DNA of 64,000 nucleotides from Acidobacteriota bacterium. Its GTDB lineage: Bacteria; Acidobacteriota; Blastocatellia; RBC074. The stretch's first letter is position 1, and each line of letters starts with the position of its first letter. The translations under genes and the position numbers were made by a program. The notes under the pieces are model-generated. The model had not been told where the DNA came from and did no database searches. It worked only from the letters and a program-made list of their open reading frames with translations. Positions 1,126 to 61,866 of the stretch are shown one piece after another. Location: the NCBI GenBank assembly GCA_019639255.1, contig JAHBSF010000006.1, positions 26,261 to 90,260 on the forward strand, read 5' to 3'.

Positions 1126-1262
1126 GAGAGATGACGAAACAAACGAAAATAGACGAAACAGACGGAAACATTCACCTTATCCGTTCTTTTCGTTTCATTT
1201 CGTTTGTTCCGTTATCTCTCATACGTCTCACGCTTTTACTGATCTCCAGTGGATCGGTTAAG
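1126..1262. repeat. family-A palindromic MITE-like element, copy A1 (core plus right tail)
   Basis: GAGAGATGACGAAACAAACGAAAATAGACGAAACAGACGGAAACA...TCCGTTCTTTTCGTTTCATTTCGTTTGTTCCGTTATCTCTC followed by the tail ...TCTCCAGTGGATCGGTTAAG. The tail overlaps the 3' end of ileS. Confidence 0.85.
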
Positions 1263-4043
1263 GCTCGCAGCGCATCGCGCGCATGCACCCGGATACCGGG
1301 CGTCGGAGCCTACATCGGTAGTATAGTTCCAGCAGCGTTCGCATTTTTCGCCGTCCGCTCGCGCTACCGTTACATTCAGTTCCGCCCCGGGTGCGAGTTC
1401 AACACCCGATACGATCAGGGCGAACCGCAGATCGTCGCCGAACGATGCAAGAAATTCCTGCGTTGACGAGTCGGCTGCAATAGCGACATGGGCTTCGAGC
1501 GCCGAGCCGATGAGTTTTGCATTGCGGGCTTCTTCCAGTGCTTTGGTAACGACACCGCGTATCTCGAACAGGCGTTCGTATCGCGCTCTCAACGCATCAT
1601 TGCTCCACGTTTCTTCCACGGTCGGGAAAAGCGTCAAGTGAACGGAAGCCGCCTTGCGGGTTGCGCCCGGAATATTCTCCCAGATTTCATCGGCTGTAAA
1701 CGCAAGTATCGGCGCCGACAGACGTGCAAGGCGCGACACAATTTCGTAAAGCGCAGTCTGCGCCGAGCGCCGAGCGCGCGATTTCGGAGCGGCGGTGTAG
1801 AGCCTGTCCTTTATGATGTCGAAGTAAAGCGACGACAATTCGAGCGTCGAAAACGAATAAATCGCCTGATAGACTTCCGTGAAGTCATAGCGTTCGTATG
1901 CAGTCAGCGCGCGGCGCGCAACTTCATTTAGTTCAGCGAGCGCCCAGCGGTCGATTTCCAGCATTTCATCGAACGCTACACAGTCATTCTCCGGGTCAAA
2001 GCCGTCGAGGTTGCCCAGGCAGAACCGGGCGGTGTTGCGTATCTTGCGATAGGCGTCCGAGATCCTTCGCAGGATCTCTTCGGATACGCGCATATCTTCA
2101 AAATAATTCAGCGCCGAACACCAGAGCCTCAATATCTCCGCCCCGCTTTGCCTGAAAATCGTCTGAAGATCGAAGGCGTTTCCCTTCGATTTCGACATCT
2201 TGTCGCCCTGAACATCGACTACCCAGCCGTAGGTAACCACGGTCTTGTACGGGGGCGCATCCTTTACTTCGAGTCCGACTACGAGCGAAGAATTGAACCA
2301 CCCGCGGAACTGGTCGCCGCCTTCGAGGTATACATCCGCAGGGTAGGGAAGTCCGCGCGGTTCGAGCACAGCAATCGAGCTTGCACCGGAGTCGATCCAC
2401 ACGTCCAGGATATCCATTTCCTTTCGGAAACGCGTACAGGAGCATTTCCTGCATACCGTCCCATCGGGCAGGAGTTCCTCCGCCGGGCGTGCATACCAGG
2501 CATCGGCCGATTCGCTTTCAAAAATCGTCGCAACGTGTTCGATCACCGCAGCGTCGCAGATCGCCTCGTCGCAATCCTCGCAGTAAAACACCGTGATGGG
2601 CACGCCCCACGACCGCTGACGGGATATGCACCAGTCGGGCCGGTTGTGGAACATGTTCTTCATCCGTACGTTGCCCCACGCAGGAACCCATTCGACGGCG
2701 TCTGCTGCGGCAATCGCGCGTTCGCGCAGGCGGGTTGCCTCCATGGATATAAACCATTGCGGCGTTGCGCGGAATATCACAGGATTGTGACAGCGCCAGC
2801 AGTGCGGGTAGTTGTGCTCGTAGTCTTCGACGTGGAGCAGCACGCCGCGCTCGCGCATGTAGTCGACGATCTTCGGATTCGCCCTGAATACCTGTTCGCC
2901 CGCAAAATGTTCGACTTCGGGAATGAACGCGCCGCGGCTGTCTACGGGGTTGTAAACCTCAAGGCCGTATTGCCTGCCGATAACATAGTCCTCGTAGCCG
3001 TGCCCCGGGGCAGTATGGACCGCGCCCGTGCCGTCATCGAGCGTCACGTGATCGCCCGTCATCAGCAGGCAATCGCGGTCGATAAAGGGATGCCGTGCAT
3101 TCAGGCGGTCGAACTGCGAGCCGTTATAGCGCCCGAGCACTGTGGGTTCATCGGGCCAGCCGAGCTTTGCTGCAACTTTTGCAAGCAACCCTTCAGCGAC
3201 GATGAATACTTCGTCGCCGATTTCTACCGCGACGTACTCAAACGCGGAATTAAACGAAATGCCGAGGTTTGCCGGCAGCGTCCACGGCGTAGTGGTCCAG
3301 ATAACGATGTTGACCGAGCGGGAGGCAAGCCGGGGATCGAGTTTGCCGGCGTCGGGAAATGGGAATTTGACGTAGATCGAGGGGCTTGTATGTGTGTTGT
3401 ATTCGACTTCGGCTTCGGCAAGCGCCGTCTGGTCGTTGATGCACCAGTGAACCGGGCGCAGTCCTTTGTAGATTGCACCGCGTTCGACGAACTTTCCGAA
3501 TACGCGAACGATCGCCGCCTGATAACGGTAATCCATCGTCAGGTAGGGGTTGTCCCATTCGCCCAGTATTCCGAGACGTTTGAATTCGTCGCGCTGAAGT
3601 GCGATGAATTTTTCCGCGTGACGGCGCGCAGCGCGGCGGATGTCGATCGTGCTCATCTCGGATTTTTTAGCGCCGAGTTCCCGGTCTACCTGTATTTCGA
3701 TTGGCAGGCCGTGGCAATCCCAGCCCGGGATGTAGGGCGCCCAGCGCCCCATCATAGAGCGCGACTTGACGCAAAAATCCTTGAGCACCTTGTTGAGTAC
3801 GTGCCCGAGGTGCAGACGGCCGTTGGCATACGGCGGGCCGTCGTGCAGGACGTAAAGCGGGCGTCCCTGCCGAACCTCGCGCAGGCGTTCGTACAGATCT
3901 ATTTCGTCCCATTTCTTCAGCCGTTGCGGCTCGTTGTGCGCGAGGTTCCCCTTGAGCGGGAAATCGGTTTTGGGCAGATTGACCGTCCTCTTCAGATCGA
4001 GCGAGGCGTCGGCGGATTGATCGGTTGGCGTTTCGGTTGACAT
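1236..4043 (-). CDS. ileS: isoleucine--tRNA ligase
   Basis: 935 aa with HLGH-type class I motif (PYANGRLHLGHVLNKVLKD), KMSKS (DKMSKSKGN) and a C-terminal CxxC...CxxC zinc finger. The last codons (..LNRSTGDQ*) are encoded by the tail of repeat A1. Confidence 0.95.
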   Translation of the reverse strand: MSTETPTDQSADASLDLKRTVNLPKTDFPLKGNLAHNEPQRLKKWDEIDLYERLREVRQGRPLYVLHDGPPYANGRLHLGHVLNKVLKDFCVKSRSMMGRWAPYIPGWDCHGLPIEIQVDRELGAKKSEMSTIDIRRAARRHAEKFIALQRDEFKRLGILGEWDNPYLTMDYRYQAAIVRVFGKFVERGAIYKGLRPVHWCINDQTALAEAEVEYNTHTSPSIYVKFPFPDAGKLDPRLASRSVNIVIWTTTPWTLPANLGISFNSAFEYVAVEIGDEVFIVAEGLLAKVAAKLGWPDEPTVLGRYNGSQFDRLNARHPFIDRDCLLMTGDHVTLDDGTGAVHTAPGHGYEDYVIGRQYGLEVYNPVDSRGAFIPEVEHFAGEQVFRANPKIVDYMRERGVLLHVEDYEHNYPHCWRCHNPVIFRATPQWFISMEATRLRERAIAAADAVEWVPAWGNVRMKNMFHNRPDWCISRQRSWGVPITVFYCEDCDEAICDAAVIEHVATIFESESADAWYARPAEELLPDGTVCRKCSCTRFRKEMDILDVWIDSGASSIAVLEPRGLPYPADVYLEGGDQFRGWFNSSLVVGLEVKDAPPYKTVVTYGWVVDVQGDKMSKSKGNAFDLQTIFRQSGAEILRLWCSALNYFEDMRVSEEILRRISDAYRKIRNTARFCLGNLDGFDPENDCVAFDEMLEIDRWALAELNEVARRALTAYERYDFTEVYQAIYSFSTLELSSLYFDIIKDRLYTAAPKSRARRSAQTALYEIVSRLARLSAPILAFTADEIWENIPGATRKAASVHLTLFPTVEETWSNDALRARYERLFEIRGVVTKALEEARNAKLIGSALEAHVAIAADSSTQEFLASFGDDLRFALIVSGVELAPGAELNVTVARADGEKCERCWNYTTDVGSDARYPGACARCAASLNRSTGDQ

Positions 4044-4204
4044 TTTTCTGGCGATCCTTGCGGAGTTTGAATCAAAAAGACATCAATGATAACGAAAAAT
4101 ATGCGAATCCCCAATAGCTTCGGCTATCTCCGGTTTGAGAAGAGAACAAACCGCGCAATATACAGAACACACGGAAGTCGCAACAGAAGGACGTTGCGCC
4201 AATG

Positions 4205-4243
4205 AAAAAGCACCCGCTCCACGCTGTTCCGGGAGTCGGGTGC
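4205..4243 (-). terminator. Rho-independent terminator candidate downstream of the DUF948 gene and upstream of ileS
   Basis: On the minus strand: GCACCCGACTCC...GGAGCGGGTGC stem (about 11 bp, one bulge) followed by TTTTT. It lies about 45 nt past the stop at 4289. Confidence 0.45.
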
Positions 4244-4288
4244 TCGTTATGGGCGCGAATTCTCAATCCGGCTGCTCCCGATGGAGCG

Positions 4289-60876: not shown

Positions 60877-60900
60877 GCAATCGCCATACGGGATAATCGG

Positions 60901-61674
60901 ATGAGCGGAAACGTGCTGGAAAAATTCAGACTCGATGGTAAGACGGCCATCGTAACGGGTGCGAGCCGCGGGCTCGGGCGCGCAATCGCGGTTGCGTTTG
61001 CCGAAGCGGGAGCCGATGTAGCTGTAGCGGCGCGCACCGAGGCCGCAATCGCTGAAACCGCTGAAGCCGTAAGGAGCCTCGGGCGGCGCGCCCTTGCAGT
61101 GGCGTGCGATGTACACAGCAGCGCGTCGGTGGCCTCGATGGTCGAGGGCGTTGTATCCGAATTCGGTAAGGTCGACATACTGATGAACAACGCGGGCGGC
61201 GGCGATATGCGGCCGCTTGTGGATACCGACGAGTCTGAATGGATGCGCATCATTGATCTCAATCTGAATTCGACCTACCGGCTGTGCCGCGCCGTGGGGC
61301 CGCATATGATCGCCAGGCGCTACGGCCGGATAATCAATATGTCGTCGACCTACGGGCTAGTGGGAGTCAAAAATGTAGTCCCGTATTGCGCTGCCAAGGG
61401 AGCGATTATCCAGTTTACGCGGGCGCTGGCGCTCGAATGGGCCGAGCACAACATATCGGTGAATGCGCTTGCGCCCGGTTATTTCTACACCGAACGCACG
61501 AGCCGCGTCTTCGACGATCCGACGCTCGGCGCAAAATTCACCGCCTCGATTCCTGCAGGACGTGTGGGCCAAAACGACGAACTTGCGCCGCTCGTGGTGT
61601 ATCTCGCATCGGACGCGTCGCCCTATATGACCGGCAGCGTCATAGTTATCGACGGGGGCATTACGGCTGCCTGA
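60901..61674 (+). CDS. SDR-family oxidoreductase (FabG-like)
   Basis: TGASRGLGRAIA (TGxxxGxG), NNAGG, and the S...Y(CAAK) catalytic motif. Confidence 0.85.
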   Translation: MSGNVLEKFRLDGKTAIVTGASRGLGRAIAVAFAEAGADVAVAARTEAAIAETAEAVRSLGRRALAVACDVHSSASVASMVEGVVSEFGKVDILMNNAGGGDMRPLVDTDESEWMRIIDLNLNSTYRLCRAVGPHMIARRYGRIINMSSTYGLVGVKNVVPYCAAKGAIIQFTRALALEWAEHNISVNALAPGYFYTERTSRVFDDPTLGAKFTASIPAGRVGQNDELAPLVVYLASDASPYMTGSVIVIDGGITAA

Positions 61675-61785
61675 ATCCGCATATACGGTCTTGTTTTTTG
61701 GGGATATGAGGTGACTGGCCAATCAGTCATGACGGAAATGAAAATGAAGCGGAAGAGGGAGCAGCGGGAATTGCGGAAAAGGTGA

Positions 61786-61866
61786 ATGGTTCCGCTGGTT
61801 CCGTCAATTTTCGTTTGTTCCGTTATCTCTCTTTTACGTCCCGGGATCATCTGGATTGATCTGGAC
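61786..61866. repeat. family-A element A16 (right arm plus tail; left arm decayed)
   Basis: GTGAATGGTTCCGCTGGTTCCGTCAATTTTCGTTTGTTCCGTTATCTCTCTTTTACGTCCCGGGATCATCTGGATTGATCTGGACG. Confidence 0.75.

Follow-up and report, generated by a model that had tools for sequence, protein, structure and literature searches.

The closest described counterparts of the element reported here, termed family A, are short palindromic repeats located between bacterial genes. Enterobacterial repetitive intergenic consensus (ERIC) sequences, also known as intergenic repeat units (IRU), are imperfect palindromes of ~127 bp that occupy transcribed intergenic spacers, including those within operons, and reach hundreds of copies in some enterobacterial genomes; to our knowledge no transposase is associated with them. 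Correia elements possess defined inverted ends of 26 bp and a TA target duplication. The short tandemly repeated repetitive (STRR) sequences of cyanobacteria are intergenic arrays of tandem 7-mers that often form hairpins and have lineage-specific units, and related species can hold different sequence types at the same repetitive extragenic palindrome (REP) loci. REPs are imperfect palindromes of 20-40 bp with a GTAG or CGTC tag, found mostly between tandem or convergent genes, downstream of coding regions (PMC3733652), and two inverted REP units make up a REPIN, which forms a hairpin in single-stranded DNA or RNA (PMC3116915). Acidobacteria pair HuH-Y1 genes of "class 3" with high-copy atypical hairpins (Quentin et al. 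2018, PMC6006769). The published class 3 hairpins are ~26-30 nt in length, GC-rich and equipped with a CnGA foot (e.g. CAGAGCCGCGACCGTTAGGGAGCG), and Solibacter usitatus has ~600 such linked hairpins that are not canonical REPs (PMC6006769). Family A was encountered in a stretch of 64,000 nt, hereafter the window, from a soil-dwelling Acidobacteriota bacterium of the Blastocatellia (assembly GCA_019639255.1, contig JAHBSF010000006.1, positions 26,261 to 90,260).

Family A is a previously undescribed family of the familiar bacterial intergenic palindromic repeats (of the type of REP, ERIC and miniature inverted-repeat transposable elements, or MITEs) and not a new kind of system; no published description of it was found in the literature searched. 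Our preferred reading, to which we assign a probability of around 0.6, is that family A is a mobile but non-autonomous palindromic DNA repeat, present in many copies in a Blastocatellia lineage and mobilised in trans, and it is very likely that it is a mobile selfish repeat of some kind. Comparison with related genomes revealed that family A entered very short spacers in this lineage, at stop codons or immediately behind them, both within operons and between them, and that its copies subsequently diverge at the neutral rate, shed arms and are hit by other elements.

Abundance and anatomy of family A

The 23-mer GAGAGATAACGGAACAAACGAAA has 17 matches with up to three mismatches on the two strands of the window and none in 100 dinucleotide-preserving shuffles. 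An nhmmer profile derived from five full copies detected 15 clear family A loci in addition to weak remnants. These loci start at 1126, 5528 (a half copy), 14353, 19057, 21487, 26260, 28646 (a half copy), 33653, 37192, 42291, 45024, 50562, 56047, 59514 (one arm) and 61729, and are accompanied by a 20-nt remnant at 51581 and a divergent variant at 60802. The density of approximately one copy per 4 kb, with at least 16 copies, agrees with an initial annotation made from the DNA sequence alone, which had also correctly described half copies and the divergent variant. Its description of the repeats as AT-rich is likewise borne out, the cores having a GC content of 38.7% compared with 56.7% for the window; cores account for 2.1% of the window, and cores plus tails for 2.8%. 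The claim that nearly every intergenic gap is occupied was too strong, given that family A is present in 17 of 51 gaps, or 16 of the 25 that are at least 85 nt long. Occupancy depends on gap type: 15 of 44 tandem and two of three convergent gaps contain family A, but none of the four divergent (promoter-only) gaps (roughly p = 0.04, computed on three large divergent gaps), so that every copy sits downstream of some gene end. We read the empty divergent gaps as purifying selection on where insertions are tolerated. Family A is not an assembly artefact, because independent assemblies of the same or near-identical species hold copies at the same positions (contig L025 at 99.4% identity, L012 and L021 at ~97%; contigs used for comparison are designated by such handles). 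A 287-kb NCBI contig of GCA_026129895.1 (JAHCHF010000006.1) is 99.4% identical to the right end of the window, and the samples that contain this species include SRR12908343 and SRR12908336.

The basic unit is a palindrome of ~95 bp, with arms of 40-50 nt that are 76-96% complementary and a loop of 5-21 nt. Each arm consists of 3.4-4 tandem copies of a 9-10-nt unit (AACGRAACA), identified by Tandem Repeats Finder as AACGGAACA or GACGAAACA, preceded by a conserved terminus, (AA)GAGAGATRAC. The arms are therefore not short palindromes themselves but tandem direct 9-10-mers and, the whole being an inverted repeat, either strand reads from a purine-rich into a T-rich arm. The inner arms of canonical copies are unlike each other (...TGAAACGAAAATTACGGAAAAGTTGAATATT compared with ...TAAGACGGAAACTACGAAAATATTCAAC), and the recurrence of this asymmetry among copies implies that they derive from a master sequence. 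Identity among the window copies is ~75-95% over the whole length. The centre motif noted initially, TTGAATATT, is exact in five copies and one base off in a sixth (45024), and the centre can stand in either orientation with respect to the tails. Perfect palindromes with private variants in both arms also occur (26260 in the window, L009:2425 and L001:3461).

A longer form of ~165 bp has additional outer parts, the presence of which had also been recognised initially (ATTGGTACAAAGCG and TGTGGATTGATTTAG) and which always adjoin family A cores. These are a long tail of 26 nt (GATTGGTACAAAGCGTGAKAMAGCAA) on one side of the core, a short tail of 10-18 nt on the opposite side, and an outer motif of 15 nt (TGTGGATTGATTTAG), inverted, at both extremes. 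All parts occur together only at 50518-50681. Tail orientation follows the local direction of the genes in all six robustly scored copies, and the ends of the core fade gradually (RAA|GAGAGAT) rather than being crisp. Family A thus ranges from 95 to 165 bp, the whole unit being an inverted repeat that has no open reading frame (ORF) of its own. The copies and fragments are as follows, with the strand given where one was assigned.

1126-1263, minus strand: core (1126-1220) with long tail and outer motif (1221-1263), between ileS and lspA
5483-5583, plus strand: half copy comprising outer motif, long tail and left arm, which stops at the centre; upstream of tatA
14089-14116: outer piece of the left arm of the 14353 copy, separated from the rest by a nested 233-bp element
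14353-14433: rest of the split copy (inner left arm, loop and right arm), ending 1-2 nt before the nadC stop codon
19026-19144: GC-richer core (19057-19144) with four units per arm; ahead of it lie a reversed long tail with outer motif (19026-19056) and a GC-rich REPIN-like hairpin
21487-21586: core-only copy with an eroded outer left end, downstream of greA
26253-26361: near-perfect palindrome with 50-nt arms that are 96% complementary, between convergent genes
28646-28731, minus strand: half copy comprising right arm, long tail and outer motif
33653-33744, plus strand: core located downstream of alaS, from which a nested element of ~290 bp (33745-34032) has apparently displaced the short tail and outer motif to 34033-34062
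34033-34062, plus strand: short tail and outer motif, probably detached from the 33653 copy to judge by similarity to 37287-37320
37164-37320, plus strand: long copy between a major facilitator superfamily (MFS) gene and ftsY, the core of which (37192-37286) follows a long tail (37164-37191) and precedes a short tail and outer motif (37287-37320)
42291-42384: degenerate core between the convergent rnj and DUF2227 genes, kept in L012 (about 97-98%) with five substitutions
45022-45102: core-only copy with a shortened right arm, ending 20 nt before the next start codon
50518-50681, plus strand: the sole copy with both outer ends, 164 bp; its core (50562-50656) is flanked by outer motif and long tail (50518-50561) on one side and by short tail and outer motif (50657-50681) on the other, and L023 has 23 nt in the orthologous spacer
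51538-51600, minus strand: remnant comprising a reversed long tail and outer motif (51538-51580) and the last 20 nt of the right arm (51581-51600), with a GC-rich REPIN-like hairpin in place of the core
56045-56170, plus strand: core (56047-56141) and short tail with a weak outer-motif match (56142-56170), between DUF35/ChsH2-like and thiolase genes
59514-59553: single purine-rich arm of four units, located after a stop codon and ahead of the next ribosome-binding site; the L023 spacer is 17 nt
60802-60873: divergent variant (GAGAACGCGGAATA...), of which a related form is present at the same site in L022 (89%) and absent in L023
61729-61864, plus strand: hybrid with a degenerate GCGGAA-type left arm, a canonical right arm, and short tail and outer motif (61832-61864), between an operator-like palindrome and the acyl-CoA dehydrogenase start codon

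One entry of the initial annotation required correction: the 14353 copy is a complete palindrome (14089-14116 plus 14353-14433), the left arm of which is split by the 233-bp element. The 60802 variant is older, a diverged form of it being shared with L022.

Family A extends beyond the window, as a search for its spread established. Exact 22-mers of the terminus are present in at least four other Blastocatellia species genomes within a species-representative collection, where all matches listed are Blastocatellia metagenome-assembled genomes, and the termini stand in unrelated gene contexts in those species. Family A-positive metagenome-assembled genomes include SMAG_U13319, STL-ACI6, AMR_MDS_4997 and Co_metawrap_1988. 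In a metagenome scan the exact terminus was present in three contigs only. Other species keep the terminal ~25 bp, and the interior differs yet stays palindromic; for example L009:61-190 combines family A termini with an interior built of TTTTCAG repeats.

Insertion at gene ends

The most informative relative is L023, the thiolase of which is 88% identical and which is collinear with the window over 49-64 kb. It lacks family A at six sites that are occupied in the window, with the following spacer lengths.

Amidohydrolase to haem-oxygenase-like gene: window 191 nt, L023 23 nt
Haem-oxygenase-like to AMP-ligase gene: window 209 nt, L023 42 nt
DUF35 to thiolase gene: window 115 nt, L023 0 nt (ATGA overlap)
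AMP-ligase to AMP-ligase gene: window 61 nt, L023 17 nt
AMP-ligase to short-chain dehydrogenase/reductase (SDR) gene: window 102 nt, L023 46 nt
SDR to acyl-CoA dehydrogenase gene: window 204 nt, L023 65 nt

The DUF35 and thiolase genes overlap in the same manner (ATGA) in L022, which is 89% identical. In the window 191 nt separate the MFS gene from ftsY, whereas gene calls put this spacer at 48 nt (L018) and 46 nt (L019), and neither contig has family A there; in L019 a different hairpin with GTGATGA-repeat arms extends from the spacer into the annotated start of ftsY. Family A gave no match in L013, L015, L019 and L023 (~55 kb together), compared with about one copy per 4 kb in the window. 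A search for an empty site via the fast-evolving 744-aa protein yielded only a 70% relative that is too diverged for the junction to be read. Relatives of ~97% identity have family A at all seven sites covered. The insertions therefore post-date ~10% divergence and pre-date ~3% divergence. Divergence from the ~97% relatives amounts to 5.9-10.2% for family A, 5.2-5.5% for other intergenic DNA and 3.0-3.1% for coding sequence. Natural empty-site controls for family A are thus available in public metagenomes. In the last of the six spacers an operator-like palindrome upstream of the acyl-CoA dehydrogenase gene (61710-61729, GGTGACTGGCCAATCAGTCA) is conserved in the 88% relative L023 (AGGTGACTGGCTGGTCGGTCA), and family A was inserted between this palindrome and the start codon.

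Four genes obtain their last codons and stop codon from family A. The C-terminus of the DUF35 protein is ...KFRPVEER*, its E-E-R and stop being read from GAAGAGAGATAA in the 56045 copy, and its relatives run 10-19 residues further. Similarly, the 327-aa protein upstream of the 45022 copy has E-E-G-stop read from the element, the last seven codons and stop of a 495-aa ORF come from the left arm of the 26260 copy, and the segment at 1221-1263 (long tail plus outer motif) supplies the last eight codons and stop of ileS. Since at least four gene 3' ends are altered, including that of ileS, errors at these loci are to be expected from gene callers and pangenome tools. Family A also breaks short-read assemblies of the lineage. 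Logan contigs of 2.4, 3.2, 4.3 and 7.8 kb from the same or a sister species (among L007, L008, L012, L021, L024 and the source of protein P0121) stop inside a copy or within ~70 nt of one. A 2,361-bp contig holds a PD40 gene of 2,235 bp, leaving only ~120 nt of flank, and this gene is bracketed by the 26260 and 28646 copies; a look-up with ileS returned only a short contig that ends just after entering a family A copy.

RNA element, gene-end hairpin or mobile DNA

It is improbable that family A is a selected RNA element, in the form of terminators or hairpins that stabilise or process mRNA and are kept for transcript function. The restriction of all copies to positions downstream of a gene end, with none in a divergent promoter gap, would suit such a role, as would the succession of A-rich arm, short GC-containing inner stem and T-rich arm, which has the layout of a bidirectional intrinsic terminator on both strands, and the presence of some other hairpin at the same operon ends in relatives. 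Well-preserved copies fold with energies of -27 to -70 kcal/mol. Paired changes in the arms do exist, 14 of 32 pairs of the consensus hairpin having undergone one or more double changes without loss of pairing. A DNA palindrome explains them equally well, since copying from variant masters would produce such a pattern too, and the covariation term contributes just -0.32 of -33.9 kcal/mol. The sense fold is better in five and worse in three of eight unidirectional cases; with no bias between equally stable sense and antisense folds, there is no G-U signature of selection at the RNA level. Arm complementarity within one copy is close to that with the arms of other copies in the window (0.755 compared with 0.742), so that no concerted evolution is detectable, and the excess in arm complementarity seen across species reflects species-specific master sequences.

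Moreover, no family A copy matches Rfam 15 at the gathering threshold, and permissive searching yields only sub-threshold hits to long hairpins resembling microRNA precursors. Divergence at or above the intergenic rate, the location of copies inside operons, even between genes that are translationally coupled in relatives, and the persistence of one-arm copies (59514) also speak against a selected RNA. A consensus scan of 20001-40000 for terminators and promoters gave counts near the shuffle expectation and missed the full copies in this region; the sole terminator calls near family A were two short stems at the truncated edge of the 28646 half copy. An intrinsic terminator has a GC-rich stem of 5-20 bp, a loop of 3-8 nt and a U-tract; the inner stem of family A has few G-C pairs and a loop of 9-13 nt. 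As its 3' arm is U-rich, family A may bring about weak bidirectional termination. The initial annotation had argued for an amplified and decaying non-autonomous repeat as opposed to a conserved functional RNA. This view is upheld by the empty sites in relatives, the remodelled gene ends, divergence at the intergenic rate, the half, one-arm and interrupted copies, and the lack of both an Rfam match and a sense-strand folding advantage.

The other hairpins at gene ends bear on a second alternative. Four operon ends hold family A in the window, namely those behind alaS, rnj and the gene of the 744-aa PD40 protein, and the one that separates the MFS gene from ftsY. In relatives that share ~90% of their nucleotides with the window (L013, and L020, which comes from the same sample as L022) these ends instead carry a CGCGGAA-type palindrome, e.g. 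GAGAAACCGCGGAAGACGCGGAAA, at a similar distance from the stop codon. Palindromes of the CGCGGAA or CACGGAA type are located at L013:2436-2474, 5566-5636 and 10654-10735, at L020:4400-4431 and at L022:6208-6237, and the window itself holds CGCGGAA-like variants at 60802 and in the left arm of the 61729 copy. The L013 hairpin after alaS resembles a canonical intrinsic terminator, with a 10-bp GC stem followed by a U-tract. More distant relatives possess many hairpins that begin at a stop codon or up to ~100 nt past it, often only a few nt away, with tandem 7-8-mer arms whose unit differs at each locus: GTGATGA and GCAGTAG in L019; CATTTGT, GAGTCCG, CGGGGAGC and ACGAAG in L018; and others in L002, L005 and L009. 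Positions of the tandem-arm hairpins are listed below.

L018: 4387-4459, 6627-6707, 7616-7691, 8615-8698, 16706-16822, 18168-18273 and 20597-20696
L019: 4510-4605 and 5751-5823
L002: 1155-1230
L005: 5663-5746

The palindrome at L018:20597-20696 takes in the stop codons of both convergent genes.

These observations would be consistent with an origin of family A in place, by replication slippage and template switching at gene ends, with similarity among copies arising by gene conversion rather than transposition. The tandem 9-10-mers of its arms, the perfect palindromes with private variants in both arms, the hybrid copy at 61729, the other hairpin type at the four orthologous operon ends and the tandem 7-8-mer hairpins that start at or within ~100 nt of stop codons in relatives all fit this explanation. 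We nevertheless consider it highly improbable. Identity of ~75-95% over the full length, extending to the asymmetric inner arms, the centre motif and the two tails, needs a copied master; the six sites empty in L023 include overlapping genes with no prior hairpin to convert; and the same termini recur next to unrelated genes in at least four further species. Gene ends may be strong hot spots that are re-occupied by successive lineage-specific hairpin families, or hairpins may be rewritten in place. A broader proposal, that family A is the amplified member of a wider undescribed Blastocatellia class of gene-end hairpins with tandem 7-10-nt arms and a unit type replaced per locus at ~10% divergence, appears quite unlikely. 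Were it true, it would call for a dedicated mechanism that generates or targets hairpins, as ordinary transposition would not give this pattern. Such a mechanism might be an enzyme recognising structure instead of sequence, which inserts into or rewrites terminator hairpins, or slippage combined with palindrome-templated repair as a steady mutational process.

A classical MITE offers a third explanation, which we consider unlikely. Family A would then be a deletion derivative of an insertion sequence (IS), moved by cut-and-paste, with its GAGAGATRAC ends and/or outer TGTGGATTGATTTAG motif bound by a DDE transposase encoded elsewhere. Its length of 95-165 bp, lack of an ORF, AT-richness, terminal inverted repeats, intergenic and polymorphic distribution and many decayed copies are as expected. 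Conservation of the terminal ~25 bp across species with a variable interior (L009:61-190) is likewise what transposase-bound ends would display, and the tandem subterminal repeats may recall the multiple transposase-binding sites at the ends of Mu or Tn7. A 233-bp element at 14120-14352, with inverted ends TACTCTGTAAACAAAG, lies within the left arm of a family A copy and is flanked by a 5-bp duplication, ATAAA; cut-and-paste elements are therefore active in this genome. On the other hand, the sole complete family A copy has no target duplication, there is no consistent flanking TA or TNA, and the ends of the core fade gradually. No transposase, integrase or Y1 domain was found in ~50 window ORFs scanned against Pfam, and the ORFs between paired copies ~2.2 kb apart in L001 and L009, whose translations were read by eye with no domain search, revealed nothing transposase-like, only metabolic or unknown proteins. 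Family A also had no match in a viral contig collection or, by BLAST, in a plasmid collection. Finally, as ends alone suffice for a transposase, a palindromic interior in every subfamily stays unexplained. The MITE-like label used initially is therefore apt as far as a short inverted repeat without an ORF and with presence/absence polymorphism is concerned, but a strict MITE is not established, since neither a target-site duplication nor a transposase with matching ends was found.

Returning to a repeat mobilised in trans, we suggest that an enzyme encoded elsewhere in the genome copies family A. The copies would be co-transcribed, as they must be where they lie inside operons, and would fold into very stable hairpins. 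Effects on the host would probably be similar to those of REP and ERIC, namely protection of mRNA 3' ends or partial, bidirectional termination, as a by-product and not the reason for existence of the element. By analogy with REP and its associated tyrosine transposase (RAYT) and with IS200/IS605, movement might proceed via recognition of a single-stranded DNA hairpin by a HuH/Y1-type enzyme, a route that we advance tentatively; DDE cut-and-paste of the MITE kind is a somewhat unlikely route, the remaining probability falling to something else. The hairpin route is placed somewhat ahead because family A forms a single hairpin over its entire length, shows no target duplication, has ill-defined core ends and carries tails that run in the direction of the local genes; the class 3 HuH-Y1 genes of Acidobacteria offer a precedent. 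Target-site duplications were looked for by eye at all ends and none was seen, few sites being informative, and the RAA...TT(Y) flanks of core-only copies prolong the palindrome rather than forming a direct repeat.

Several points weigh against a mobile repeat of this description. The flanks of the 50518-50681 copy (ACCTGG and TCGAGC) contain no direct repeat, but as a single site they are compatible with a duplication of 1-2 bp, and relatives with empty sites are too diverged for the junctions to be read base by base. No mobilising enzyme was found in the window or at the inspected L001 and L009 loci, so that the mechanism is read from anatomy alone. Family A has no GTAG, CGTC or CnGA foot as found in known Y1-associated hairpins, and its arms are not short palindromes. 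The four operon ends that carry a CGCGGAA-type hairpin in ~90% relatives, and are thus not empty, are not predicted by simple random insertion. As to the orientation bias, the directions of transcription and replication are inseparable in this window. Should a Y1/HuH or other enzyme be tied to family A, hairpin-directed transposition would extend to long AT-rich palindromes.

Genomic setting and relation to known repeats

The window represents ordinary chromosome, encoding lgt, lspA, ileS, tatA, comEC, coaX, birA, nadC, valS, bamD, rpe, greA, mdh, icd, alaS, ftsY, ribD, rsmA, rnj and a fatty-acid degradation cluster. Homologues of its FtsY and thiolase carry the names Blastocatellia, Pyrinomonadaceae or Acidobacteria. 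At ~24.7-30 kb the genes switch from mostly minus to mostly plus strand, and the minimum of the cumulative GC skew is located here. A replication origin at this switch was considered and dropped, as the window contains no exact DnaA box and one-mismatch boxes are not in excess (12 compared with 6.6 expected); an identity of the outer motif with the DnaA box was dropped on the same grounds.

Other repeats reside alongside family A. A GC-rich REPIN-like hairpin is present at 18956-19025 and 51464-51537, with a GGGTAC foot, inverted arms of 30-32 nt and a stem such as GCACGCG-CCCT-CGCGTGC. Both copies adjoin a reversed family A long tail and outer motif, at the position where the core would normally be. 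In L013 a REPIN-like version with a compensated stem (GCGGGCG...CGCCCGC) lies between rsmA and rnj (8787-8862) and is absent from this location in the window. The GC-rich window hairpin fits the REPIN description much better than family A does. L023 has a REPIN-like pair of its own at 8843-8980 (GTTGTCCGACAAGCTGCCAGCTTGTCG and its inverse), where the same spacer in the window is 67 nt and repeat-free. A second copy of the 233-bp element occurs at ~33771-34006, inside a short palindrome with ends resembling the outer motif. The Rfam family Acido-Lenti-1 (RF01687) matches both arms of this element (14148-14194, minus strand; 14277-14323, plus strand; 33800-33846, minus strand). Because the motif is in both arms of an element flanked by the ATAAA repeat, Acido-Lenti-1 is here part of a duplication-bounded MITE-like element and not a stand-alone small RNA gene. 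With the REPIN-like hairpin and the Acido-Lenti-1 element both resident, this genome is a compact setting in which to study the nesting and competition of repeats. Two further repeats were observed: a small hairpin unrelated to family A (AGAAGGCTGAAGACTCTGAA / TTCTGCGTCTTCAGCGTTCT, 10317-10388) between comEC and a tRNA methyltransferase gene, and a tandem 18-mer (ATACTGACAAATTACTGA, 1.9 copies, 5334-5373) directly after the stop codon of the ORF at 4655-5320.

Among known systems, ERIC resembles family A in being a single long imperfect palindrome of ~100 bp that is located in spacers, including those inside operons, and has copies varying by internal deletion or insertion. In contrast, sequence and phylum are unrelated, and family A has purine/pyrimidine-asymmetric arms of tandem 9-10-mers, is AT-rich in a GC-rich host and has optional tails and an outer motif. 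The Correia elements of Neisseria (CREE/NEMIS) are likewise dense MITE-like repeats near genes, 100-155 bp in length, which form co-transcribed hairpins, alter gene 3' ends and coexist in full, deleted and decayed forms. The termini of family A are different, however, lack a TA flank or duplication, and belong to a Blastocatellia host; a short similarity may link the outer motif (TGTGGATTGATTTAG) with the Correia end (TATAGTGGATTAAATTTAAA).

With REP and REPIN, family A has in common that it is hairpin-forming, non-autonomous, extragenic and without target duplication, that it forms mosaics with other repeat modules, as in bacterial interspersed mosaic elements (BIMEs), that it lies mostly in tandem and convergent gaps downstream of coding regions, that relatives can hold other sequence types at its loci, and that it consists of two inverted arms, here of 40-50 nt, that fold as a hairpin. 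REPs, in contrast, are GC-rich, 20-40 bp long and have a foot, whereas the arms of family A are AT-rich, non-palindromic and footless, and no RAYT was seen among the window ORFs scanned. The class 3 HuH-Y1 hairpins of Acidobacteria and Planctomycetes are similar in belonging to the same phylum and in being atypical and of high copy number. Assignment of family A to the published class 3 Y1 hairpins was rejected, as their consensus has no match in the window and family A is AT-rich and ~95 bp long; CAGA precedes only a minority of family A ends. The IS200/IS605-derived palindrome-associated transposable elements (PATEs) have distinct left and right subterminal hairpins and insert 3' of a fixed tetra- or pentanucleotide, whereas family A is one whole-length hairpin with a mostly RAA 5' flank that is mirrored on the 3' side; neither TnpA nor TnpB was seen among the window ORFs scanned against Pfam. 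The cyanobacterial STRR sequences and small dispersed repeats are comparable to the tandem-unit arms of family A and of the hairpins in its relatives, but differ in phylum and unit length, and cataloguing the repeats gave no sign of the nested, symmetric insertions known for small dispersed repeats. Strict membership of the MITE, REP/REPIN or Correia groups fails in each case on at least one defining feature. Family A instead joins the few abundant hairpin families, such as REP, ERIC, Correia elements and Rickettsia palindromic elements (RPE), whose copying mechanism is unknown or debated, and adds to them a representative from a poorly studied phylum.

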